DNA of 64,000 nucleotides, taken from NCBI RefSeq assembly GCF_048403405.1, contig NZ_CP183129.1; one strand, given 5' to 3'. A program made the position numbers and the translations under genes. A model generated the notes under the pieces. That model ran no database searches. It had not been told where the DNA came from and saw only the letters and a program-made list of their open reading frames with translations. This stretch comes from Escherichia coli (GTDB lineage Bacteria; Pseudomonadota; Gammaproteobacteria; Enterobacterales; Enterobacteriaceae). This document shows, piece after piece, positions 9,640 to 60,136 of this stretch; position 1 is the stretch's first letter; each line of letters starts with the position of its first letter.

Positions 9640-9718
9640 TTAAAAGTATTTTCCGAGGCTCCTCCTTTCATTTTGTCCCATGTGTTGGGAGGGGCCTTTT
9701 TTACCTGGAGATATGACT

Positions 9719-11866
9719 ATGAACGTTATTGCAATATTGAATCACATGGGGGTTTATTTTAAAGAAGAACCCATCCGTGAACTTCATCGCGCGCTTGAAC
9801 GTCTGAACTTCCAGATTGTTTACCCGAACGACCGTGACGACTTATTAAAACTGATCGAAAACAATGCGCGTCTGTGCGGCGTTATTTTTGACTGGGATAA
9901 ATATAATCTCGAGCTGTGCGAAGAAATTAGCAAAATGAACGAGAACCTGCCGTTGTACGCGTTCGCTAATACGTATTCCACTCTCGATGTAAGCCTGAAT
10001 GACCTGCGTTTACAGATTAGCTTCTTTGAATATGCGCTGGGTGCTGCTGAAGATATTGCTAACAAGATCAAGCAGACCACTGACGAATATATCAACACTA
10101 TTCTGCCTCCGCTGACCAAAGCATTGTTTAAATATGTTCGTGAAGGTAAATATACTTTCTGTACTCCTGGTCACATGGGCGGTACTGCATTCCAGAAAAG
10201 CCCGGTAGGTAGCCTGTTCTATGATTTCTTTGGTCCGAACACCATGAAATCTGATATTTCCATTTCAGTATCTGAACTGGGTTCTCTGCTGGATCACAGT
10301 GGTCCACACAAAGAAGCAGAACAGTATATCGCTCGCGTCTTTAACGCAGACCGCAGCTACATGGTGACCAACGGTACTTCCACTGCGAACAAAATTGTTG
10401 GTATGTACTCTGCTCCGGCAGGCAGCACCATTCTGATTGACCGTAACTGCCACAAATCGCTGACCCACCTGATGATGATGAGCGATGTTACGCCAATCTA
10501 TTTCCGCCCGACCCGTAACGCTTACGGTATTCTTGGTGGTATCCCACAGAGTGAATTCCAGCACGCTACCATTGCTAAGCGCGTGAAAGAAACACCAAAC
10601 GCAACCTGGCCGGTACATGCTGTAATTACCAACTCTACCTATGATGGTCTGCTGTACAACACCGACTTCATCAAGAAAACACTGGATGTGAAATCCATCC
10701 ACTTTGACTCCGCGTGGGTGCCTTACACCAACTTCTCACCGATTTACGAAGGTAAATGCGGTATGAGCGGTGGCCGTGTAGAAGGGAAAGTGATTTACGA
10801 AACCCAGTCTACTCACAAACTGCTGGCGGCGTTCTCTCAGGCTTCCATGATCCACGTTAAAGGTGACGTAAACGAAGAAACCTTTAACGAAGCCTACATG
10901 ATGCACACCACCACCTCTCCGCACTACGGTATCGTGGCGTCCACTGAAACCGCTGCGGCGATGATGAAAGGCAATGCAGGTAAGCGTCTGATCAACGGTT
11001 CCATTGAACGTGCGATCAAATTCCGTAAAGAGATCAAACGTCTGAGAACGGAATCTGATGGCTGGTTCTTTGATGTATGGCAGCCGGATCATATCGATAC
11101 CACTGAATGCTGGCCGCTGCGTTCTGACAGCACCTGGCACGGCTTCAAAAACATCGATAACGAGCACATGTATCTTGACCCGATCAAAGTCACCCTGCTG
11201 ACTCCGGGGATGGAAAAAGACGGCACCATGAGCGACTTTGGTATTCCGGCCAGCATCGTGGCGAAATACCTCGACGAACATGGCATCGTTGTTGAGAAAA
11301 CCGGTCCGTATAACCTGCTGTTCCTGTTCAGCATCGGTATCGATAAGACCAAAGCACTGAGCCTGCTGCGTGCTCTGACTGACTTCAAACGTGCGTTCGA
11401 CCTGAACCTGCGTGTGAAAAACATGCTGCCGTCTCTGTATCGTGAAGATCCTGAATTCTATGAAAACATGCGTATTCAGGAACTGGCTCAGAATATCCAT
11501 AAACTGATTGTTCACCACAATCTGCCGGATCTGATGTATCGCGCATTTGAAGTGCTGCCGACAATGGTAATGACTCCGTATGCTGCGTTCCAGAAAGAGC
11601 TGCACGGTATGACCGAAGAAGTTTACCTCGACGAAATGGTAGGTCGTATTAACGCCAATATGATCCTTCCGTATCCGCCGGGAGTTCCTCTGGTAATGCC
11701 GGGTGAAATGATCACCGAAGAAAGCCGTCCGGTTCTGGAGTTCCTGCAGATGCTGTGTGAAATCGGCGCTCACTATCCGGGCTTTGAAACCGATATTCAC
11801 GGTGCATACCGTCAGGCTGATGGCCGCTATACCGTTAAGGTATTGAAAGAAGAAAGCAAAAAATAA
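9719..11866 (+). CDS. cadA: inducible lysine decarboxylase CadA, 715 aa
   Basis: ORF track starts at 9680; ATG at 9719 gives MNVIAILNHMGVYFKEEP matching recalled CadA; PLP-lysine motif region STHKLL present; paralog of the adiA product. Confidence 0.95.
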   Translation: MNVIAILNHMGVYFKEEPIRELHRALERLNFQIVYPNDRDDLLKLIENNARLCGVIFDWDKYNLELCEEISKMNENLPLYAFANTYSTLDVSLNDLRLQISFFEYALGAAEDIANKIKQTTDEYINTILPPLTKALFKYVREGKYTFCTPGHMGGTAFQKSPVGSLFYDFFGPNTMKSDISISVSELGSLLDHSGPHKEAEQYIARVFNADRSYMVTNGTSTANKIVGMYSAPAGSTILIDRNCHKSLTHLMMMSDVTPIYFRPTRNAYGILGGIPQSEFQHATIAKRVKETPNATWPVHAVITNSTYDGLLYNTDFIKKTLDVKSIHFDSAWVPYTNFSPIYEGKCGMSGGRVEGKVIYETQSTHKLLAAFSQASMIHVKGDVNEETFNEAYMMHTTTSPHYGIVASTETAAAMMKGNAGKRLINGSIERAIKFRKEIKRLRTESDGWFFDVWQPDHIDTTECWPLRSDSTWHGFKNIDNEHMYLDPIKVTLLTPGMEKDGTMSDFGIPASIVAKYLDEHGIVVEKTGPYNLLFLFSIGIDKTKALSLLRALTDFKRAFDLNLRVKNMLPSLYREDPEFYENMRIQELAQNIHKLIVHHNLPDLMYRAFEVLPTMVMTPYAAFQKELHGMTEEVYLDEMVGRINANMILPYPPGVPLVMPGEMITEESRPVLEFLQMLCEIGAHYPGFETDIHGAYRQADGRYTVKVLKEESKK

Positions 11867-11924: not shown

Positions 11925-13382
11925 ATGAAAACACCCTCACAGCCGCGCGCGATATACTATATCGTGGCGATCCAAATCTGGGAGTACTTCAGTTTTTACG
12001 GCATGCGTGCCTTACTCATTCTCTATCTCACCCATCAGCTTGGTTTTGATGATAACCATGCCATCAGCCTGTTCAGCGCATATGCTTCTCTGGTTTACGT
12101 TACCCCTATTCTCGGCGGCTGGCTTGCCGACCGCCTGCTCGGCAACCGCACTGCAGTGATTGCCGGCGCGCTGTTAATGACCCTTGGCCATGTAGTGCTG
12201 GGCATTGATACAAATTCAACCTTTAGCCTGTATCTGGCGCTGGCAATCATTATTTGTGGCTACGGTTTATTCAAATCAAACATCAGCTGTTTGCTTGGCG
12301 AGCTCTACGACGAGAACGATCATCGACGTGATGGCGGTTTTTCGCTGCTGTATGCTGCAGGCAATATCGGTTCTATCGCCGCCCCCATCGCCTGCGGCCT
12401 GGCTGCTCAGTGGTATGGATGGCATGTTGGCTTTGCCCTTGCGGGTGGCGGCATGTTTATCGGTTTGTTGATTTTCTTAAGCGGTCATCGTCATTTCCAG
12501 TCCACGCGTAGTATGGATAAGAAAGCGCTCACTAGCGTCAAATTTGCCTTACCAGTATGGAGCTGGTTAGTGGTGATGCTCTGTTTAGCCCCAGTATTTT
12601 TTACCCTGCTGCTGGAGAACGACTGGTCCGGATATTTGCTGGCGATCGTTTGCCTCATTGCAGCACAAATCATTGCCCGCATGATGATCAAATTCCCCGA
12701 ACACCGCCGTGCTCTTTGGCAAATTGTATTGTTGATGTTTGTCGGGACGTTGTTCTGGGTACTGGCACAACAGGGCGGCAGTACCATCAGCTTGTTTATC
12801 GATCGCTTTGTGAATCGTCAGGCATTCAATATTGAAGTACCTACAGCACTATTCCAGTCGGTGAATGCCATTGCGGTGATGCTCGCTGGGGTTGTTCTGG
12901 CCTGGCTGGCGTCGCCAGAAAGCCGCGGCAATTCAGCATTGCGCGTCTGGCTGAAGTTTGCCTTTGGCTTACTGCTGATGGCTTGTGGCTTTATGTTGCT
13001 GGCATTTGATGCCCGACATGCAGCGGCTGGCGGTCAAGCGTCAATGGGCGTGATGGTATCCGGGCTGGCGCTAATGGGCTTTGCTGAACTCTTTATTGAC
13101 CCGGTGGCGATTGCGCAAATCACGCGTCTGAAAATGTCTGGCGTATTAACCGGTATTTATATGCTGGCAACAGGCGCGGTCGCCAACTGGCTGGCAGGCG
13201 TCGTGGCACAGCAGACGACAGAGTCGCAAATTAGCGGTATGGCAATTGCCGCTTACCAGCGATTCTTTTCTCAGATGGGAGAGTGGACGTTGGCTTGTGT
13301 CGCGATCATCGTGGTATTGGCCTTTGCTACCCGTTTTCTGTTTAGCACGCCGACGAATATGATACAGGAGAGCAACGATTAA
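11925..13382 (+). CDS. dtpC: proton-dependent di/tripeptide transporter DtpC (YjdL), 485 aa
   Basis: ORF with RBS aaggag; POT/PTR2-family MFS transporter; matches recalled DtpC. Confidence 0.93.
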
Positions 13383-19021: not shown

Positions 19022-19591
19022 CGGATCGCTGGTTATCTGTAAGTAATAATTATTACTGTAATGCAAAATATTCCTGGCACAAGTTACATTCTTCATCAGT
19101 AAAACTTGTGCCAGATCAAATATAATTATCCCTCCATCATCGTTAAAAATTAATATCTCTTCAGATGAACGGTGTTTTTAATTTCAAAACGCTAACAAAA
19201 GTTAATTAACTATTATGTCACCCGCATTATGTGTATTTTTACCCACAAATGGGTAGATCAGATTAATCTATATACCTAATGATATCTGCCCTGAGAACAA
19301 AAAATAGACCGATAAATATCAATAAGATAATAGCAAACAAAACATTAACATCTGCGCAGTACAAACTATAAACCCATCGCCAGAGAGTTTTTCTCTCTGA
19401 AAAAGCCGCTTATCACAGTGCATAAATTTGCCGCTGCTTTAATCAGCCAATATTCACTGTGAGGTATTTGCTAAAGCCGGTAACGACCAAACGGATATTT
19501 AGTCAGGCTCTGAAAACAGTTCATACAAAACAGAACGTGACTGTGATCTATTCAGCAAAAATTTAAATAGGATTATCGCGAGGGTTCACAC

Positions 19592-20932
19592 ATGTTATTT
19601 ACTATCCAACTTATCATAATACTGATATGTCTGTTTTATGGTGCCAGAAAGGGTGGTATCGCGCTGGGTTTATTAGGCGGTATCGGTCTGGTCATTCTGG
19701 TCTTCGTCTTCCACCTTCAGCCAGGTAAACCACCGGTTGATGTCATGCTGGTTATCATTGCGGTGGTGGCGGCATCGGCGACCTTGCAAGCTTCGGGCGG
19801 TCTTGATGTCATGCTGCAAATTGCCGAGAAGCTGCTGCGCCGCAACCCGAAATATGTCTCAATTGTCGCGCCGTTTGTGACCTGTACGCTGACCATTCTT
19901 TGCGGTACGGGTCATGTGGTTTACACCATTCTGCCGATCATCTACGACGTCGCCATTAAGAACAACATCCGTCCGGAACGCCCGATGGCGGCAAGTTCTA
20001 TCGGTGCACAGATGGGGATTATCGCCAGTCCGGTGTCGGTTGCAGTCGTGTCTCTGGTTGCGATGCTGGGTAATGTCACCTTTGATGGTCGCCATCTTGA
20101 GTTCCTCGACCTGCTGGCAATCACCATTCCATCGACGTTAATCGGTATCCTGGCGATCGGTATCTTCAGCTGGTTCCGCGGTAAAGATCTGGATAAAGAC
20201 GAAGAGTTCCAGAAATTCATCTCCGTACCGGAAAACCGTGAGTATGTTTACGGTGATACCGCGACGCTGCTCGATAAAAAACTGCCGAAAAGCAACTGGC
20301 TTGCAATGTGGATCTTCCTCGGGGCAATCGCTGTAGTCGCACTTCTTGGTGCTGATTCGGACCTGCGTCCATCCTTCGGTGGCAAACCGCTGTCGATGGT
20401 ACTGGTTATTCAGATGTTTATGCTGCTTACCGGGGCGCTGATTATTATCCTGACCAAAACCAATCCCGCGTCTATCTCAAAAAACGAAGTCTTCCGTTCC
20501 GGTATGATCGCCATCGTGGCGGTGTACGGTATCGCATGGATGGCTGAAACCATGTTCGGTGCGCATATGTCTGAAATTCAGGGCGTACTGGGTGAAATGG
20601 TGAAAGAGTATCCGTGGGCCTATGCCATTGTTCTGCTGCTGGTTTCCAAGTTTGTAAACTCTCAGGCTGCGGCGCTGGCGGCGATTGTTCCGGTCGCGCT
20701 GGCGATCGGCGTTGATCCGGCATACATCGTGGCTTCAGCACCGGCTTGCTACGGTTATTACATCCTGCCGACTTATCCGAGCGATCTGGCAGCGATTCAG
20801 TTTGACCGTTCCGGCACCACCCACATCGGTCGCTTCGTCATCAACCACAGCTTTATTCTGCCGGGGTTGATTGGTGTGAGCGTATCGTGCGTCTTCGGCT
20901 GGATCTTCGCCGCGATGTACGGGTTCTTATAA
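19592..20932 (+). CDS. dcuB: anaerobic C4-dicarboxylate antiporter DcuB, 446 aa
   Basis: Hydrophobic ORF paralogous to the dcuA product (shared LLRRNPKY motif); preceded by a 570-bp AT-rich regulatory region; matches recalled DcuB. Confidence 0.95.
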
Positions 20933-49954: not shown

Positions 49955-50635
49955 ATGATTAACGTACAAAACGTCAGTAAAACCTTCATCCTGCACCAGC
50001 AAAACGGCGTGCGCCTGCCCGTCTTACAACGTGCCTCGCTCACCGTCAACGCAGGCGAATGCGTGGTGCTTCACGGCCACTCCGGCAGCGGCAAATCAAC
50101 TCTGCTGCGCTCGCTGTACGCCAACTATCTGCCCGATGAAGGGCAAATCCAGATCAAACATGGTGACGAGTGGGTAGACCTGGTCACTGCGCCAGCGCGC
50201 AAAGTGGTGGAAATCCGCAAAACCACTGTCGGCTGGGTGAGCCAGTTTCTGCGCGTCATCCCGCGTATTTCGGCACTGGAAGTGGTGATGCAGCCTCTGC
50301 TCGATACCGGCGTACCGCGTGAAGCCTGCGCCGCTAAAGCCGCCCGATTACTGACGCGCCTGAACGTGCCTGAGCGCCTGTGGCACCTTGCGCCATCAAC
50401 CTTCTCCGGCGGTGAACAACAGCGCGTCAACATCGCCCGCGGCTTTATCGTCGACTACCCTATTCTGCTGCTCGACGAACCCACCGCCTCGCTGGACGCC
50501 AAAAACAGCGCCGCGGTGGTGGAACTAATTCGCGAAGCCAAAGCCCGTGGCGCGGCCATCGTCGGCATTTTCCATGACGAAGCCGTACGCAATGACGTCG
50601 CCGACCGCCTGCACCCAATGGGAGCCTCTTCATGA
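49955..50635 (+). CDS. phnL: C-P lyase accessory ABC-type ATPase PhnL, 226 aa
   Basis: ATG at 49955 ([21 protein letters not shown]); Walker [10 protein letters not shown]. Confidence 0.93.
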
Positions 50636-51768
50636 TTATCAATAACGTTAAGCTGGTGCTGGAAAACGAAGTGGTGCACGGTTCGCTGGAGATGCAGGAC
50701 GGTGAAATCCGCGCCTTTGCCGAAAGCCAGAGCCGCCTGCCGGACGCGATGGACGGCGAAGGTGGCTGGCTGCTGCCGGGGCTGATTGAGCTGCATACCG
50801 ATAATCTGGATAAATTCTTCACCCCGCGCCCGAAAGTTGACTGGCCCGCCCATTCAGCGATGAGCAGCCACGACGCGCTGATGGTGGCAAGCGGCATCAC
50901 CACCGTACTGGACGCCGTGGCGATTGGTGATGTGCGCGACGGCGGCGATCGGCTGGAGAATCTGGAGAAGATGATCAACGCCATCGAAGAGACGCAGAAA
51001 CGCGGCGTCAACCGCGCCGAGCACCGCCTGCACCTGCGCTGCGAACTGCCGCACCACACCACGTTGCCGCTGTTTGAAAAACTGGTGCAGCGCGAACCGG
51101 TGACGCTGGTATCGCTGATGGACCACTCGCCAGGCCAGCGCCAGTTCGCCAATCGCGAGAAGTATCGCGAATATTATCAGGGCAAATATTCCCTCACCGA
51201 TGCGCAGATGCAGCAGTACGAAGAAGAGCAATTGGCGCTCGCCGCACGCTGGTCGCAGCCAAATCGCGAAACCATCGCCGCAATGTGCCGCGCGCGACAC
51301 ATTGCGCTCGCCAGCCACGATGACGCCACGCACGCCCACGTTGCCGAATCCCACCAGCTTGGCAGCGTGATCGCCGAATTTCCCACCACGTTCGAAGCGG
51401 CAGAAGCCTCGCGCAAGCATGGCATGAACGTGCTGATGGGCGCGCCGAATATCGTGCGCGGCGGTTCGCACTCCGGCAACGTGGCGGCCAGTGAACTGGC
51501 GCAGCTTGGCCTGCTGGATATCCTCTCTTCCGACTACTACCCCGCCAGCCTGCTCGATGCGGCATTTCGCGTCGCCGATGACGAGAGCAACCGCTTTACG
51601 CTGCCGCAGGCGGTGAAGTTGGTGACCAAAAATCCGGCGCAGGCGCTTAATCTCCAGGATCGCGGGGTGATTGGCGAGGGCAAACGCGCCGACCTGGTGC
51701 TGGCGCATCGCAAGGGCAATCACATTCATATCGACCACGTCTGGCGTCAGGGTAAAAGGGTGTTCTGA
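50632..51768 (+). CDS. phnM: amidohydrolase-family PhnM (ribosyl-triphosphate diphosphohydrolase), 378 aa
   Basis: ATGA overlap with phnL; metal-dependent hydrolase motif region HTDNLD. Confidence 0.93.
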
Positions 51769-52325
51769 TGACGGGAAAACTGATTTGGTTAATGGGGGCC
51801 TCTGGCTCCGGAAAAGACAGTCTGTTGACGGAACTCCGCCAGCGGGAACAAACTCAGCTACTGGTAGCGCATCGCTACATCACGCGCGCCGCCAGCGCCG
51901 GAAGTGAAAACCATATCGCCCTGAGCGAGCAGGAGTTTTTTACCCGCGCGGGGCAAAATCTGCTGGCCTTAAGCTGGCACGCTAACGGCCTGTATTATGG
52001 CGTCGGCGTCGAGATTGACCTCTGGCTGCACGCTGGATTTGACGTGATGGTCAACGGCTCACGCGCCCATCTGCCGCAGGCGCGGGCGCGCTATCAATCG
52101 GCGCTGCTGCCCGTTTGTTTACAGGTTTCGCCGGAGATCCTGCGCCAGCGCCTCGAAAACCGTGGTCGTGAAAATGCCAGTGAAATTAACGCCCGACTGG
52201 CACGCGCTGCCCGCTATACTCCTCAGGATTGTCTTACGCTCAATAATGACGGCAGCCTGCGCCAGTCGGTCGACAAGCTGCTGACGCTGATTCATCAGAA
52301 GGAGAAACACCATGCCTGCTTGTGA
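51768..52325 (+). CDS. phnN: ribose 1,5-bisphosphate phosphokinase PhnN, 185 aa
   Basis: P-loop GASGSGKDS; overlaps phnM stop. Confidence 0.93.
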
Positions 52326-52746
52326 GCTTCGCCCGGCTACGCAGTACGACATCGACGCAGTTTACGCGCTGATTTGTGAGCTAAAACAGGCGGAGTTTGA
52401 CCACCACGCGTTTCGCGTGGGGTTTAACGCCAATCTGCGCGACCCGAACATGCGCTACCATTTGGCGCTGCTGGATGGCGAGGTTGTCGGCATGATCGGT
52501 CTGCATTTGCAGTTTCATCTGCATCATGTCAACTGGATCGGCGAAATTCAGGAACTGGTGGTGATGCCGCAGGCGCGCGGTCTGAACGTCGGTAGTAAAT
52601 TACTGGCATGGGCAGAAGAAGAAGCCCGCCAGGCCGGGGCAGAAATGACCGAGCTTTCCACCAACGTCAAGCGCCACGACGCGCACCGTTTCTATCTGCG
52701 CGAAGGCTATGAGCAGAGCCACTTCCGCTTCACCAAGGCGCTGTAA
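52312..52746 (+). CDS. phnO: aminoalkylphosphonate N-acetyltransferase PhnO (GNAT), 144 aa
   Basis: ORF and operon position; overlaps phnN 3' end. Confidence 0.92.
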
Positions 52747-52747
52747 C

Positions 52748-53506
52748 ATGAGCCTGACCCTCACACTTACTGGCACTGGCGGCGCACAGGGCGTTCCCGC
52801 ATGGGGCTGTGAGTGCGCGGCCTGCGCCAGAGCGCGGCGCTCATCGCAGTATCGCCGCCAGCCATGCAGCGGCGTCGTGAAGTTTAACGACGCGATCACC
52901 CTGATCGACGCCGGGCTGCACGATCTCGCCGATCGCTGGTCGCCCGGATCGTTCCAGCAGTTTTTGCTGACGCACTACCATATGGATCACGTGCAGGGGC
53001 TGTTTCCGCTGCGCTGGGGCGTGGGCGATTCGATCCCGATCTACGGCCCGCCGGATGAACAGGGCTGCGACGATCTGTTTAAACATCCGGGCCTGCTTGA
53101 TTTCAGCCACACGATGGAACCGTTTGTGGTGTTTGATTTACAGGGGTTACAGGTCACGCCCCTGCCGCTCAACCACTCAAAACTGACCTTCGGTTATCTG
53201 CTGGAAACGGCACACAGCCTGGTGGCGTGGCTGTCTGACACCGCTGGCTTGCCGGAAAAAACGCTGAAATTTTTACGCAATAATCAGCCGCAGGTAATGG
53301 TGATTGATTGCAGCCATCCGCCGCGTGCGGATGCGCCGCGTAATCACTGTGATTTAAACACCGTGCTGGCGCTGAATGAGGTTATCCGCTCGCCACGGGT
53401 GATTCTGACGCATATCAGCCACCAGTTTGATGCGTGGCTGATGGAAAACGCACTGCCGTCGGGGTTTGAGGCGGGGTTTGATGGGATGGAGATTGGGGTG
53501 GCGTGA
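52748..53506 (+). CDS. phnP: phosphodiesterase PhnP (metallo-beta-lactamase fold), 252 aa
   Basis: ATG at 52748 ([23 protein letters not shown]); HxHxDH-type motif THYHMDH; ORF track starts upstream in frame. Confidence 0.92.
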
Positions 53507-53560
53507 TGGGATGGAGATTGGGGTGGCGTGATGGGATGGAGATTGGGGTGGCGTGATGGG
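53481..53560. repeat. tandem direct repeat, about 3.2 copies of a 25-bp unit spanning the phnP stop codon
   Basis: Unit atgggatggagattggggtggcgtg at 53481-53505, 53506-53530 and 53531-53555, then partial atggg; copy 1 encodes the phnP C-terminus ...DGMEIGVA*. Confidence 0.9.
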
Positions 53561-53597
53561 GAGAATGTGCTCGCTGGCCCCCTCACCCGAGCCTACC

Positions 53598-53927
53598 TCA
53601 TCGCCCATACTCATCTTCCATTCTCCGCTCTTCATCCTCCAGTTGCCGACGCTCCTGATCAAGCTGGCGCTGGCGATCGTCCAGCTGCCTGCGGCGATCT
53701 TCAAACTGGCGGCGGCGGTCGTCATATTGTCTGCGCCGATCGTCGCTCACTTCACGCTGCCAGCCGTCGTCGTGCGAATCTTCATAGTCTCGCCCACGGT
53801 CAGGGTTATAAGCATCGTTAATCGCCTGCTGAATATTGCCAATGGTGTCGTCGATAATATCGGCCTGGGCCGGAACGGTGGACAGCGTGAGCAGGGTGAA
53901 TAAAAGAAATAGCGGAAAGCGTTTCAT
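53598..53927 (-). CDS. yjdP: secreted charged repeat protein YjdP, 109 aa
   Basis: Signal peptide MKRFPLFLLFTLLTLSTVPAQA; C-terminal Arg/Asp/Gln-rich heptad repeats; matches recalled YjdP. Confidence 0.85.
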   Translation of the reverse strand: MKRFPLFLLFTLLTLSTVPAQADIIDDTIGNIQQAINDAYNPDRGRDYEDSHDDGWQREVSDDRRRQYDDRRRQFEDRRRQLDDRQRQLDQERRQLEDEERRMEDEYGR

Positions 53928-53995
53928 TAGCCAACCTCAAAAAGAAACTCTATCCACATTAGTCATTACTCATCCATGCAAGTAGTGGATGAATC

Positions 53996-54313
53996 TCAAT
54001 TTCTCCGCTGCTCTATTGCCGTAATCGCCTCCACGTGTTGTTGATGACGACCGCCTTCGTACTGCGCGCCCAGCCACGCATCCACAATCATTTTTGCCAG
54101 TTCGAGGCCAACCACTCGTGAACCAAAAGCCAGTGCAACTTCACTGGCATAATGCGGATAATCAGTGCGCTCTGACGACCTGGTGTCTTTATCAATCACC
54201 TCACTCATTGACCATGAATAAAAGGCTGGCACAGCAACGCAGAATCCTGCGGTGCCAGCGACATGACCGCCCATTGCTCCGGTACGTTTTTTAATAAAAA
54301 ACACCGGTTGCAT
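53996..54313 (-). pseudogene. rpiB: rearranged remnant of ribose-5-phosphate isomerase B (rpiB), 105-codon ORF
   Basis: C-terminal 42 aa (FGSRVVGLELAKMIVDAWLGAQYEGGRHQQ.VEAITAIEQRRN) and an internal block (VIDK.T.SSERTDYPHYAS.VALA) match recalled RpiB, but about 50 central residues are missing and the first 34 residues are unrelated. Confidence 0.5.
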
Positions 54314-54565
54314 TGATTAATTGTGCTCAGTATTTGCCGAAGTACAATATATATAATAAATATATAAAACACCTCATATTATTTACAGAGATAATAAATT
54401 CGCGTAATTTTCCCTCTTCAGCACAAATGCCTAATAAAATGGCGCGTTCAGCTCACACTTCTACTTATTAAAGTCGCAATTTCCCAATTATGATAACGCC
54501 AGCTTTAAATGACGTATTTTGCATGGATTACATATTTACGACACAAATGATAAATGGAGATTTAT

Positions 54566-56551
54566 ATGAATAACTCTCGGTTATTCCGTTTGAGCAGGAT
54601 TGTTATTGCGTTAACTGCCGCCAGCGGCATGATGGTAAATACCGCTTACGCAACAGATGAAGCGAAAGCCGCCACTCAATATACCCAACAGATTAATCAG
54701 AATTACGCCAAATCATTACCGTTTAGCGATCGTCAGGATTTTGACGATGCCCAGCGTGGATTTATCGCCCCGCTGCTGGATGAAGGTATTCTGCGTGATG
54801 CTAACGGTAAAGTTTACTACCGCGCAGACGATTACAAATTTGATATTAATGCCGCTGCGCCGGAAACCGTAAACCCCAGCCTGTGGCGTCAGTCGCAAAT
54901 CAACGGTATTTCTGGCCTGTTCAAAGTCACCGATAAAATGTATCAGGTGCGCGGCCAGGATATCTCTAACATTACGTTCGTTGAGGGCGAGAAAGGCATT
55001 ATTGTTATCGACCCACTGGTGACGCCGCCTACCGCAAAAGCCGCACTTGATCTTTACTTCCAGCATCGTCCGCAAAAACCGATTGTTGCTGTGATTTACA
55101 CCCACAGCCACGCCGACCATTATGGCGGTGTGAAAGGCATTATCTCTGAAGCCGATGTTAAATCCGGCAAAGTTCAGGTGATTGCTCCAGCTGGCTTTAT
55201 GGACGAAGCCATCAGCGAAAACGTGCTGGCGGGTAACATCATGAGCCGCCGTGCGCTCTACTCTTACGGTCTGTTACTGCCGCACAACGCGCAAGGCAAC
55301 GTGGGCAACGGCCTTGGCGTGACGCTGGCAACGGGCGACCCGAGCATTATTGCACCGACTAAAACTATCGTCAGAACTGGCGAGAAGATGATTATCGACG
55401 GCCTGGAGTTTGACTTCCTGATGACCCCAGGTAGCGAAGCGCCAGCCGAAATGCACTTCTATATTCCGGCCCTGAAAGCCCTGTGTACCGCCGAGAACGC
55501 CACGCATACCCTGCACAACTTCTACACTCTGCGCGGCGCGAAAACCCGCGATACCAGCAAGTGGACCGAGTACCTGAACGAAACGCTGGATATGTGGGGT
55601 AACGACGCGGAAGTACTGTTTATGCCGCACACCTGGCCGGTCTGGGGCAATAAGCATATCAATGATTATATTGGTAAATATCGCGATACTATCAAGTACA
55701 TTCACGACCAGACCCTGCACCTGGCGAACCAGGGCTACACCATGAATGAAATCGGCGACATGATTAAGCTGCCGCCTGCGCTTGCCAATAATTGGGCCAG
55801 CCGCGGCTATTACGGTTCTGTCAGCCACAACGCCCGCGCGGTATATAACTTCTATCTTGGCTATTACGACGGTAACCCGGCTAACCTGCATCCCTATGGT
55901 CAGGTGGAGATGGGTAAACGTTACGTGCAGGCGCTGGGCGGTTCTGCCCGTGTCATCAACCTGGCGCAAGAAGCGAACAAGCAAGGTGATTACCGTTGGT
56001 CGGCAGAACTGCTGAAACAGGTGATTGCCGCCAACCCAGGTGACCAGGTCGCGAAGAATCTGCAAGCGAATAACTTTGAACAGCTGGGCTATCAGGCCGA
56101 GTCCGCCACCTGGCGCGGTTTCTACCTGACCGGCGCGAAAGAGCTGCGCGAAGGGGTACATAAGTTCAGCCACAGCTCCACCGGTTCCCCGGACACCCTT
56201 CGCGGGATGTCGGTCGAAATGCTATTCGACTTTATGGCCGTTCGCCTCGATAGCGCGAAAGCCGCAGGTAAGAATATCAGCCTGAACTTCAATATGAGCA
56301 ACGGCGATAACCTCAACCTGACGCTGAACGATAGCGTGCTTAACTACCGTAAAACGCTGCAACCTGAAGCCAACGCCTCTTTCTACATCAGCCGTGAAGA
56401 TCTTCACGCCGTGCTGACCGGACAAGCCAAAATGGCGGATCTGGTAAAAGCGAAGAAAGCCAAAATTATTGGCAATGGTGCGAAACTGGAAGAAATTATT
56501 GCCTGTCTGGATAATTTCGATTTGTGGGTGAATATCGTAACCCCAAATTAA
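54566..56551 (+). CDS. yjcS: putative alkyl/aryl-sulfatase YjcS (metallo-beta-lactamase superfamily), 661 aa
   Basis: ATG at 54566 with RBS tggaga ([21 protein letters not shown]...YA signal peptide); HxHxDH motif HSHADH; ORF track starts 12 nt upstream. Confidence 0.9.
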
Positions 56552-56561
56552 TGCCACTCAC

Positions 56562-56595
56562 TTTTGGGGGCCCTTAAGCCCCCAAAAGCATTTAT
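56562..56595 (+). terminator. rho-independent terminator downstream of yjcS
   Basis: Hairpin ttttgggggc-ccttaa-gcccccaaaa followed by a T/A-rich tail. Confidence 0.55.
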
Positions 56596-56759
56596 TTAAA
56601 AAATATATACAGCAAATTAATACATAAAATATATAAGTTATGAATGCGGTGGCTGAATAAAGCTATTTTTATTCATCGAGAAAATAGCCATACTGACGCC
56701 TTCAATGGATATTGATATTCACTACAGATATTGTTCGCAGCAGACAGGATGTATTTAAT

Positions 56760-57035
56760 ATGCCAACAGTTCTCTCTCGCATGGCGATGCAACTCAAAAA
56801 AACAGCCTGGATAATTCCCGTCTTCATGGTTTCGGGATGCTCATTATCTCCGGCAATCCCGGTGATCGGCGCTTATTATCCCAGCTGGTTTTTCTGCGCC
56901 ATTGCCAGCCTTATTTTGACGCTCATCACGAGGCGAATTATTCAGCGGGCAAATATCAATCTGGCATTTGTCGGAATTATTTATACCGCCCTTTTTGCTC
57001 TCTACGCCATGCTGCTCTGGCTGGCATTTTTCTAA
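56760..57035 (+). CDS. ytcA: small lipoprotein YtcA, 91 aa
   Basis: ATG at 56760 (MPTVLSRMAMQLKKTAWIIPVFMVSGCSL lipobox); ORF track starts upstream in frame; directly upstream of mdtN. Confidence 0.85.
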   Translation: MPTVLSRMAMQLKKTAWIIPVFMVSGCSLSPAIPVIGAYYPSWFFCAIASLILTLITRRIIQRANINLAFVGIIYTALFALYAMLLWLAFF

Positions 57036-57053
57036 TTTATTTGAGACGCGCTC

Positions 57054-58085
57054 ATGGAAAGTACGCCGAAAAAAGCTCCTCGCAGTAAATTCCCTGCTCT
57101 GTTAGTGGTTGCGTTGGCGCTGGTTGCCCTTGTTTTCGTTATCTGGCGCGTAGACAGTGCGCCATCAACTAATGACGCCTACGCGTCAGCAGATACCATT
57201 GATGTGGTGCCGGAAGTCAGCGGTCGCATTGTAGAACTGGCGGTCACCGACAACCAAGCGGTGAAACAGGGCGATTTGCTGTTCCGCATCGACCCGCGCC
57301 CGTACGAAGCCAATCTGGCGAAAGCCGAAGCCTCCCTCGCGGCGCTGGATAAGCAAATTATGCTCACCCAGCGTAGCGTTGACGCGCAACAGTTTGGTGC
57401 CGACTCGGTTAATGCCACGGTAGAAAAAGCCCGTGCCGCCGCGAAACAGGCCACAGATACATTACGCCGCACCGAGCCATTACTGAAAGAAGGTTTTGTC
57501 TCAGCGGAAGACGTTGACCGTGCAAGAACTGCGCAGCGCGCTGCAGAAGCGGATCTTAATGCCGTATTGTTACAGGCGCAGTCAGCCGCCAGCGCCGTCA
57601 GCGGCGTCGATGCGCTGGTGGCGCAACGTGCGGCGGTCGAAGCGGATATTGCCCTGACCAAACTGCATCTGGAAATGGCGACCGTTCGCGCGCCGTTTGA
57701 TGGCCGGGTCATTTCCCTCAAAACCTCCGTCGGGCAATTTGCTTCTGCCATGCGCCCTATTTTCACCCTAATCGACACTCGTCACTGGTACGTGATCGCC
57801 AATTTCCGCGAAACTGATCTGAAAAATATTCGCTCAGGTACACCCGCAACGATTCGCCTGATGAGCGACAGCGGCAAAACCTTCGAGGGTAAAGTGGATT
57901 CGATTGGCTACGGCGTGCTACCGGATGACGGCGGCCTGGTGCTGGGCGGCCTGCCGAAAGTGTCTCGTTCTATTAACTGGGTCCGCGTTGCCCAGCGTTT
58001 TCCGGTCAAAATCATGGTTGATAAACCTGACCCGGAAATGTTCCGCATCGGCGCTTCGGCAGTCGCTAATCTTGAGCCGCAATAA
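57054..58085 (+). CDS. mdtN: efflux system membrane fusion protein MdtN (SdsR), 343 aa
   Basis: HlyD/EmrA-family ORF with N-terminal TM anchor and coiled-coil region; matches recalled MdtN. Confidence 0.93.
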   Translation: MESTPKKAPRSKFPALLVVALALVALVFVIWRVDSAPSTNDAYASADTIDVVPEVSGRIVELAVTDNQAVKQGDLLFRIDPRPYEANLAKAEASLAALDKQIMLTQRSVDAQQFGADSVNATVEKARAAAKQATDTLRRTEPLLKEGFVSAEDVDRARTAQRAAEADLNAVLLQAQSAASAVSGVDALVAQRAAVEADIALTKLHLEMATVRAPFDGRVISLKTSVGQFASAMRPIFTLIDTRHWYVIANFRETDLKNIRSGTPATIRLMSDSGKTFEGKVDSIGYGVLPDDGGLVLGGLPKVSRSINWVRVAQRFPVKIMVDKPDPEMFRIGASAVANLEPQ

Positions 58086-60136
58086 TGAGCGCGCTCAACT
58101 CCCTGCCATTACCGGTGGTCAGGCTGCTGGCGTTCTTTCATGAAGAGTTAAGCGAGCGGCGACCAGGCCGCGTGCCGCAGACTATGCAACTCTGGGTAGG
58201 CTGCCTGCTGGTGATTCTGATCTCGATGACTTTTGAGATCCCTTTTGTGGCGTTATCACTGGCAGTGCTGTTTTACGGTATTCAGTCGAACGCGTTTTAC
58301 ACCAAATTTGTGGCGATCTTGTTTGTGGTCGCCACGATGCTGGAAATCGCCAGCCTGTTTTTGATCTACAAATGGTCATATGGCGAACCGTTGATCCGAT
58401 TGATCATTGCCGGACCGATCCTGATGGGCTGCATGTTTTTGATGCGCACCCATCGGTTGGGGCTGGTCTTTTTCGCCGTCGCCATTGTCGCTATTTACGG
58501 GCAAACCTTCCCCGCCATGCTCGACTATCCGGAAGTGGTCGTGCGCTTAACCCTGTGGTGTATCGTTGTTGGCCTCTATCCAACCTTGCTGATGACGTTA
58601 ATCGGCGTGCTGTGGTTTCCCAGCCGCACCATTACGCAAATGCATCAAGCGCTTAATGATCGGCTTGATGATGCCATTAGTCACCTGACGGACAGCCTCG
58701 CACCGCTACCCGAAACGCGGATTGAAAGAGAGGCGCTGGCGCTGCAAAAACTCAATGTCTTTTGCCTCGCGGACGATGCCAACTGGCGAACTCAGAGCGC
58801 ATGGTGGCAAAGCTGCGTGGCAACGGTAACCTACATTTACTCGACGCTGAATCGCTACGATCCCACCTCTTTTGCTGATTCTCAGGCAATTATTGAATTT
58901 CGGCAAAAATTAGCCACAGAAATCAACAAACTGCAGCATGCCATTGCCGAAGGTCAGTGCTGGCAAAGCGACTGGCGGATCACTGAAAGTGAAGCGATGG
59001 CGGCACGGGAATGTAACCTGGAGAATATCTGCCAGACATTGTTGCAACTGGGTCAGATGGACCCGAATACGCCGCCAACGCCCGCCACCAAACCGCCATC
59101 AATGGTCGCCGACGCTTTTACCAATCCAGACTATATGCGCTACGCGGTAAAAACGCTGCTCGCCTGTTTGATCTGTTACACCTTCTACAGCGGCGTGGAC
59201 TGGGAAGGCATTCACACCTGTATGCTGACCTGCGTGATCGTCGCTAACCCGAATGTTGGTTCGTCGTATCAGAAAATGGCGCTGCGTTTTGGCGGTGCCT
59301 TCTGCGGTGCAATTCTGGCGCTGTTATTCACGCTACTGGTCATGCCCTGGCTGGACAATATTGTCGAATTGCTGTTTGTGCTGGCACCGATTTTCCTGTT
59401 GGGCGCATGGATTGCCACCAGCTCTGAACGCTCTTCTTATATCGGCACACAGATGGTGGTTACCTTCGCGCTCGCCACGCTCGAAAATGTTTTTGGCCCG
59501 GTGTACGACCTGGTGGAAATTCGCGATCGCGCCCTGGGTATCATCATTGGTACCGTGGTGTCCGCGGTGATTTACACCTTTGTCTGGCCTGAAAGTGAAG
59601 CGCGCACACTGCCGCAAAAACTGGCTGGCGCGCTGGGTATGTTGAGTAAAGTAATGCGGATCCCACGCCAGCAGGAAGTCACGGCTCTGCGCACTTATCT
59701 GCAAATTCGTATAGGTCTGCATGCGGCGTTTAATGCCTGTGAAGAGATGTGCCAACGCGTGGCGCTGGAGCGTCAACTGGACAGCGAAGAACGCGCTTTA
59801 CTGATTGAACGTTCGCAAACGGTTATTCGTCAGGGCCGCGATATTCTTCACGCCTGGGATGCAACCTGGAACTCGGCGCAAGCGCTGGATAACGCACTAC
59901 AGCCGGACAGAGCAGGTCAGTTTGCCGACGCACTGGAGAAATACGCCGCCGGTCTGGCAACCGCACTCAGCCGTTCTCCTCAAATAACGCTTGAAGAAAC
60001 ACCCGCCTCGCAGGCCATCCTGCCGACCTTATTAAAACAGGAGCAACACGTCTGCCAGCTTTTCGCCCGCTTGCCAGACTGGACAGCCCCGGCATTAACG
60101 CCCGCCACGGAACAGGTACAAGGAGCCACGCAATGA
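58085..60136 (+). CDS. mdtO: efflux system inner-membrane component MdtO (SdsQ), 683 aa
   Basis: Start overlaps mdtN stop by 1 nt; FUSC/aromatic acid exporter-like membrane protein; matches recalled MdtO. Confidence 0.93.
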   Translation: MSALNSLPLPVVRLLAFFHEELSERRPGRVPQTMQLWVGCLLVILISMTFEIPFVALSLAVLFYGIQSNAFYTKFVAILFVVATMLEIASLFLIYKWSYGEPLIRLIIAGPILMGCMFLMRTHRLGLVFFAVAIVAIYGQTFPAMLDYPEVVVRLTLWCIVVGLYPTLLMTLIGVLWFPSRTITQMHQALNDRLDDAISHLTDSLAPLPETRIEREALALQKLNVFCLADDANWRTQSAWWQSCVATVTYIYSTLNRYDPTSFADSQAIIEFRQKLATEINKLQHAIAEGQCWQSDWRITESEAMAARECNLENICQTLLQLGQMDPNTPPTPATKPPSMVADAFTNPDYMRYAVKTLLACLICYTFYSGVDWEGIHTCMLTCVIVANPNVGSSYQKMALRFGGAFCGAILALLFTLLVMPWLDNIVELLFVLAPIFLLGAWIATSSERSSYIGTQMVVTFALATLENVFGPVYDLVEIRDRALGIIIGTVVSAVIYTFVWPESEARTLPQKLAGALGMLSKVMRIPRQQEVTALRTYLQIRIGLHAAFNACEEMCQRVALERQLDSEERALLIERSQTVIRQGRDILHAWDATWNSAQALDNALQPDRAGQFADALEKYAAGLATALSRSPQITLEETPASQAILPTLLKQEQHVCQLFARLPDWTAPALTPATEQVQGATQ

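Follow-up and report, generated by a model that had tools for sequence, protein, structure and literature searches.

A common deletion allele between yjdP and yjcS in Escherichia coli carrying a probable pseudogene remnant of rpiB

The D-allose regulon of Escherichia coli K-12, composed of rpiB and of alsR(rpiR)-alsBACEK, is said to be covered, at least in part, by the work of Kim et al. in 1997, Sorensen & Hove-Jensen in 1996 and Poulsen et al. in 1999. In the E. coli RpiB enzyme, Cys66 is the catalytic base and His99 another catalytic residue (PMC4783025). The rpiR/rpiB spacer contains the only target of RpiR, a single operator, as well as the rpiB promoter site (PMC5934670). The als genes are absent from EAEC 042, which does not grow on D-allose (Chaudhuri et al. 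2010, PLoS One, PMC2808357). In EHEC O157:H7, the island OI167 (lmvK-lmuKAIZYX-lmvR) is devoted to sugar utilisation and virulence regulation (mBio 2023, PMC10128022). On the yjcS side, binding of RpoN holoenzyme and NtrC in vitro has been reported for the K-12 yjcS spacer (PMC8743547).

The analysed stretch of DNA (the window, 64,000 nucleotides) displays the gene order phnM-N-O-P (+), yjdP (-), an ORF of 105 codons (-) and yjcS (+). In K-12 (JM109, locus L002), the same flanks surround an intact rpiB (149 aa) and the divergent alsR-alsB-alsA-alsC-alsE-alsK operon, which is the layout given in the original prediction. The variable segment measures 6,977 bp in K-12 versus 346 bp in the window, and neither an intact rpiB nor the als genes were found at this site or elsewhere in the 64-kb window. 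The interval 53500-54700 is 100% identical to strain TUM14771. An assembly artefact at the junction was ruled out, as the same contiguous sequence is present in 1,567-1,569 complete genomes. PGAP places the yjcS start at 54566, and the longest yjcS ORF is preceded by the spacer 54314-54553. This spacer was predicted to consist of about 240 bp of AT-rich DNA and indeed comprises 240 bp with 31% G+C, versus 51.6% for the whole window; it is mostly the normal yjcS spacer, kept in every allele and partly in Kluyvera. The features of the locus are listed in the table.

Table. Features of the yjdP-yjcS interval in the window, with the corresponding positions in K-12 JM109 (locus L002).
Feature	Window position	Strand	K-12 position (L002)	Basis and remarks
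yjdP, DDRRRQL-repeat protein, conserved left flank gene	53598..53927	-		ORF list; PGAP annotation of identical strain; 98.7% identity to K-12
yjdP start, spacer and rpiB codons 105-149	53900-54133		12306-12539	98.7% identity
Conserved left flank	53928..54003	.		Ends in motif GTAGTGGATGAATCTCAATT, the left edge of the variable cassette point
Chimeric 105-codon ORF, probable rpiB pseudogene remnant	53996..54313	-		PGAP: WP_001183284.1, 'RpiB/LacA/LacB family sugar-phosphate isomerase'
rpiB 3' piece, codons 105-149 and stop	53996..54133	-	12402-12539	blastn versus K-12, 98.6% identity; 2/132 positions differ
Junction 1, 159-bp in-frame deletion (RpiB residues 54-106)	54124..54133			Exact AGCCAG direct repeat at 54128-54133; 9/10 match over CAAAAGCCAG
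rpiB codons 29-53, alignment	54124-54203		12689-12768	87.5% identity
Internal rpiB block, codons 29-52	54134..54203	-		Between the two deletions; 87.5% identity to K-12
Junction 2, ~6.56 kb (about 6,557 bp) gone	54204..54211			Breakpoint not placeable to the base because of diverged sequence
Last 6 nt of alsK (CCATGA) and stem-loop downstream of alsK	54212..54263	+	19326-19377	78.8% identity to K-12
Scar-allele-specific 78-bp segment	54264..54341	.		No K-12 counterpart; second hairpin CCGGTACGTTTTTTAATAAAAAACACCGG; source of the ATG of the ORF at 54311-54313
Conserved AT-rich yjcS upstream spacer (30% G+C), right flank	54342..54565	+		Starts at motif (A)ATATATATAATAAA, where all alleles converge
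yjcS upstream spacer and yjcS start	54342-54700		19379-19738	93.9% identity
yjcS, alkyl sulfatase, conserved right flank gene	54566..56551	+		ORF list; PGAP

The anatomy of the interval was established by low-stringency blastn and by setting the window directly against the two K-12 sides in a three-way comparison. The minus-strand ORF of 105 codons is present as predicted and derives from rpiB. Its residues 63-105 correspond to RpiB 107-149 with a single substitution relative to K-12 (R137H), and its residues 38-62 to RpiB 29-53 with three substitutions; these are the C-terminus and the one internal block that the original prediction had recognized. The central residues lacking, put at about 50, number 53. 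The N-terminus is unrelated to RpiB as proposed, but extends over 37 residues rather than 34, and these codons are non-coding DNA (the hairpin and the 78-bp segment) read backwards. The last two codons of rpiB (AAT TGA) fall inside the left-edge motif. The remnant is real, but the term "rearranged" was too strong, the pieces being collinear with K-12 without inversion or transposition. Two deletions and the 78-bp extra segment are sufficient to account for the structure relative to K-12, and the proposed search for breakpoints and microhomology located one of the deletions at the AGCCAG direct repeat. The second deletion removed rpiB codons 1 to ~28, the rpiB/alsR promoter-operator spacer, alsR, alsB, alsA, alsC, alsE and alsK except for its last few codons. 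The computed folds reveal that the stem downstream of alsK is preserved through paired changes, with GTTGGCAC/GTGCCAAC in K-12 and GCTGGCAC/GTGCCAGC in the window.

The 78-bp segment displays no match elsewhere in the window, in K-12, O157, E. whittamii, a divergent lineage labelled 'E. coli' (L007) or 60-odd fetched loci. It is also absent from the OI167 alleles and from als+ E. coli, and among the 5,426 genomes searched its matches occur only in scar alleles. The OI167 cassette was considered as the source of the odd pieces of the scar and was rejected, the two having no sequence in common in the scar interior. An Rfam scan of the junction returned only mir-48, outside the scar and at chance level (18.6 bits versus a gathering score of 69, E=0.97).

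The original prediction had left the choice between a deletion and an ancestral absence at a strain-variable junction, and the state of the locus in other species bears directly on it. In E. whittamii and in the divergent lineage L007, the order yjdP-rpiB-als-yjcS is collinear with K-12, with 93% and 91% identity over 7.7 kb. In two Kluyvera species, on the other hand, yjdP directly adjoins yjcS (L011 and L012, about 9660-10005), and the spacer aligns with the left flank of the window (to GAATCTCAATT) joined to its right flank (from ATAATAAATATA), with no rpiB or alsK sequence in this spacer. Related genera thus possess an empty site, and PGAP calls the ORF a normal CDS; from these two facts one could argue that als was never present in this lineage and that the ORF is an independent small gene merely resembling RpiB. 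Collinear DNA homology to both ends of the cassette refutes this reading, to which we give next to no probability: the window contains two collinear rpiB fragments with 98.6% and 87.5% DNA identity, as well as the alsK stop codon and downstream hairpin, none of which occur in the empty site, and als occupies the same site in other Escherichia lineages. Since the window has rpiB and alsK sequence and the empty site has none, the window descends from an occupied site, and on this comparison the locus is a deletion scar rather than an ancestral absence. Retention of DNA internal to the cassette thus decides for deletion, at a junction which is strain-variable as foreseen, with at least three common alleles.

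The motif at the left boundary, GTAGnGGAkGAwTCTCAATT, is kept in different genera (Kluyvera L011 and L012; O157 L003 713-790), and both rpiB and the unrelated lmvK take their final codon and stop (AAT TGA) from it. The motif GTAGTGGATGAATCTCAATT is common to the als, OI167 and Kluyvera empty-site alleles, and the same flank-encoded ...AATTGA is used as end by both rpiB and lmvK.

The two collinear fragments of the parent gene, together with intact alleles at the same locus in relatives, are those expected of a deletion-derived remnant. Using the NCBIfam curated cut-offs, the remnant is not recognized as a functional member of the RpiB families: it scores 78.3 bits with TIGR01120 (cut-off 138.65) and 60.7 bits with TIGR00689 (cut-off 88.3), versus 255.7 and 211.1 bits for the K-12 RpiB. 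The Pfam profile LacAB_rpiB (PF02502) matches the remnant at model positions 102-138 of 138, plus a weak match to positions 25-50. Both Cys66 and His99 are included in the missing residues 54-106, residues 1-28 are also gone, and the alignment to the structures 1NN4 and 2VVR covers only two separate segments. An AlphaFold2 single-sequence model, a type of model that is often poor, has a mean pLDDT of 46.4 with no residue at or above 70 and contains helices only. The rpiB/alsR spacer is deleted in the scar, and the native promoter and operator have disappeared with it. Upstream of the new ATG there is no Shine-Dalgarno-like sequence of the kind found in native rpiB (GGGGAAG); at the sequence level, the native promoter/operator and the translation-initiation signal are thus both lost. 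A simple scan found no sigma-70-like site at the remnant, a result of little weight as the same scan found no yjcS promoter either. The AT-rich upstream spacer could harbour a cryptic divergent promoter that such a scan would miss.

The variation of the ORF was examined in the same perspective. In seven alleles, 14 sites vary, of which 8 are non-synonymous and 6 synonymous, where 77% non-synonymous would be expected (P=0.085, with low power). Variable sites make up 4.3% of the ORF versus 2.9-4.9% of the flanks. The ORF is open in 8/8 alleles, from lineages up to ~3-4% apart, an observation of little weight given so few substitutions. The ratio of non-synonymous to synonymous changes leans slightly to purifying selection (P=0.085) and may indicate a weak constraint on the ORF. 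Together with the predicted helical nature of the kept C-terminal part and the constant openness of the frame, this ratio somewhat under the neutral expectation could suggest a maintained and expressed small protein, either an RpiB C-terminal helical fragment that binds to or interferes with another protein, or a chimeric ORF with a new function. We consider such a protein highly improbable. It would have neither promoter/operator nor Shine-Dalgarno sequence, its 37 N-terminal codons derive from a hairpin and intergenic DNA, its variability equals that of the flanks, and a 105-codon ORF that has undergone only 14 substitutions is expected to stay intact by chance. Moreover, scar strains possess no RpiB partner, and the predicted fold is of low confidence. 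The remnant is probably unexpressed and is, with high confidence, a pseudogene that PGAP has annotated as a CDS.

The internal block differs from K-12 at 9/75 positions and the adjoining 3' piece at 2/132 (Fisher p=0.002), that is a divergence of 12% for the block versus 1-7% elsewhere in these flanks. Six of the nine nucleotide differences are synonymous; five of the nine are unique to the scar lineage when E. whittamii and L007 are compared, with two hits in one codon. A divergence of 12% requires an extra assumption, which is either insulation of the block with neutral decay or descent from a divergent als cassette. For the former, the flank has likely been homogenised up to junction 1 by recombination with als+ strains, while the 70-bp block insulated between the deletions keeps its old divergence, to which decay was added. 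The latter would derive the scar from a divergent (~12-20%), possibly foreign, rpiB-als cassette, the rpiB 3' end having been overwritten later by recombination with ordinary E. coli alleles. This origin would account for an identity that falls precisely at junction 1 from 98.6% to 87.5% (Fisher p=0.002), for the hairpin piece that is only 78.8% identical and the 78 bp without counterpart, and for the 6/9 synonymous differences, as expected if the gene was still functional while diverging. No such intact cassette was found, however, in the 5,426 E. coli genomes or in the retrieved Escherichia outgroups, the samples are small (75 and 52 bp), and decay after inactivation fits equally well with differences of which 5/9 are unique to the scar and two lie in one codon. 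We therefore regard a divergent cassette as unlikely; it would in any case alter the history and not the nature of the feature. An attempt to recognize an old linked haplotype by a decay of divergence away from the junction was dropped, the phn-yjcS region being mosaic at 93-99% identity and giving no clean signal.

The strain BHUCD02 is als+ and K-12-like, and displays exactly eight differences from K-12 across the yjdP-alsR interval. All eight are of the scar type and are localized in a 50-bp stretch inside its intact rpiB (L072 8704-9153), where they change RpiB by G34D, W36R and Q49E. This patch is apparently a short gene conversion from the pseudogene allele into a live rpiB. BHUCD02 is one of eight genomes, out of 5,426, that match only the internal block.

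Other differences were observed in the surrounding region. At 53479-53597 of the window, 3.3 copies of a 25-bp unit, TGATGGGATGGAGATTGGGGTGGCG, span the phnP stop codon, versus one copy in K-12 and O157; in EAEC 042, phnP is longer owing to a different 12-bp duplication. A second variable spot is the phnP-yjdP spacer, where K-12 has one or two palindromic CCCTCTCCCC...GGGGCGAGGGG repeat elements that are not present in the window. The intervals 50134-53400 (phn operon) and 54342-58341 (yjcS-mdtN) are strongly mosaic among the window, K-12 and 042, with 250-bp windows ranging from 91% to 100% identity, which points to frequent recombination across this chromosomal region.

The distribution of the alleles was analysed in 5,426 complete E. 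coli genomes. The contiguous scar junction was found in 1,567-1,569 of them (~29%) with 95-100% identity, K-12-type als DNA in 3,404, and the OI167 lyxose/mannose island at the same point in 411. These counts add up to 5,384, which is consistent with mutually exclusive alleles, and the remainder includes IS1-mediated losses. Each edge has one motif that is common to all the alleles. The scar occurs, among others, in E. coli W, O111:H8, O178:H19 and EAEC 042, the first three of which we take to belong to phylogroup B1 and the last to phylogroup D. The point is multi-allelic: its flanking genes and boundary motifs match those of the published island and of the als cassette (PMC10128022). Eight of the 1,569 scar alleles were inspected at base level and aligned over 969-1,021 bp with zero gaps, EAEC 042 being at 97.3%. 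As the three structural features are identical and gap-free in these eight alleles, they appear to have been inherited together from one event, and the scar allele probably arose once. It now segregates at about 29% in E. coli, in more than one phylogroup. Literature searches yielded the 042 case and the OI167 paper, but no account of this polymorphism at the level of phylogroups.

The presence of several alleles with common boundaries also invites a broader reading, in which the yjdP-yjcS point is a cassette-exchange site with sharp edges (GAATCTCAATT on the left, ATATATATAATAAA on the right) that swaps unrelated sugar-utilisation modules (als, OI167 and others), and in which, in addition, the scar donates sequence to live rpiB, as the BHUCD02 patch would illustrate, or the 105-aa ORF is expressed with a function of its own. 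Taken as a whole, this combination seems very unlikely to us.

Some genomes deviate from the three common alleles. In EC291 (L004 9288-10029), an IS1 lies directly against a 5'-truncated yjcS and is bordered by yjdM at its opposite end; the locus lacks the cassette together with yjdP and the entire phn operon, a rare fourth state. Escherichia sp. MOD1-EC7003 (L005 8500-10000) has another allele, where yjcS is preceded, at a distance of ~390 bp, by the end of a 144-aa ORF whose size resembles that of phnO; no match to yjdP, rpiB or als was found in this locus, ORFs of the size of basRS and proP are nearby and most of phn is apparently absent. Finally, the scar allele is present in NZ_CP026085.1 (H103), a 4.83-Mb RefSeq genome labelled 'DH5alpha'. 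True K-12 derivatives are als+, and this genome is probably mislabelled.

The region is very probably the decayed remnant of an rpiB-alsRBACEK cassette formerly located between yjdP and yjcS. In the proposed history, a 159-bp in-frame deletion would have occurred inside rpiB between two AGCCAG repeats, a position that fits replication slippage or a microhomology-mediated event, and a second deletion, presumably in this order, would have taken away the ~6.56 kb between rpiB codon ~28 and the alsK end. The interval now retains the two pieces of rpiB and the alsK-proximal hairpin, along with the 78 bp that have no match outside the scar alleles in the sequences searched. The minus-strand reading of the non-coding remainder stays open by chance and supplies an ATG, hence the existence of a 105-codon ORF. 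Cells with the scar would not catabolise D-allose and would depend on RpiA for the isomerisation of ribose-5-phosphate.

The scar is an ordinary, common and previously reported gene-loss allele, the loss of als having been published in 2010 for EAEC 042, with a mis-annotated pseudogene, and it has little importance beyond bookkeeping. What is new is of minor extent: the internal block has diverged strongly, and it seems to have been copied into a live rpiB in one als+ strain. The scar accounts for the lack of D-allose use in EAEC 042 and, judging from the genomes, would do so in ~29% of complete E. coli genomes, including E. coli W and many STEC. The CDS annotated as 'RpiB/LacA/LacB family sugar-phosphate isomerase' in more than 1,500 RefSeq genomes is most probably a pseudogene, and pangenome or metabolic-model work should leave it out when isomerases are counted; one mastitis association study already has the presence of rpiB and alsB as fitness-associated. 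For the polymorphism in which als, scar and OI167 are three alternatives at a single cassette point, exact breakpoints are now available. On a small scale, the diverged block trapped in the scar, with its seeming transfer into a live gene of one strain, illustrates that recombination homogenises flanks but not the DNA insulated between deletions.

Compared with the known systems, the K-12 rpiB-als region represents the parent arrangement, with the same yjdP and yjcS flanks, collinear fragments and a shared hairpin downstream of alsK. The window differs from the K-12 regulon by the 6.7 kb that are missing, including RpiB 1-28 and 54-106, the promoter-operator spacer and all six als genes. EAEC 042 is similar to the window, with the same scar and the same 318-nt remnant ORF between yjcS and yjdP (97.3% identity over 1,021 bp, gapless), but the 042 paper (PMC2808357) mentions neither the rpiB remnant, nor the two-deletion structure, nor the population frequency. 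OI167 resembles the als cassette and the scar in having its left and right boundaries at the same motifs, whereas it is a functional island of 9.2 kb found in 411 genomes that has nothing in common with the scar interior. As in generic short-CDS pseudogene remnants, the scar contains a domain fragment below the family cut-offs and a fortuitous start codon of non-coding origin, it lacks recognizable signals for expression, and its variation may be neutral. In contrast to such remnants, it has an unusually wide distribution, with 29% of complete genomes, and a stable structure, and a 50-bp patch of it has apparently been passed to the live rpiB of the als+ strain BHUCD02.
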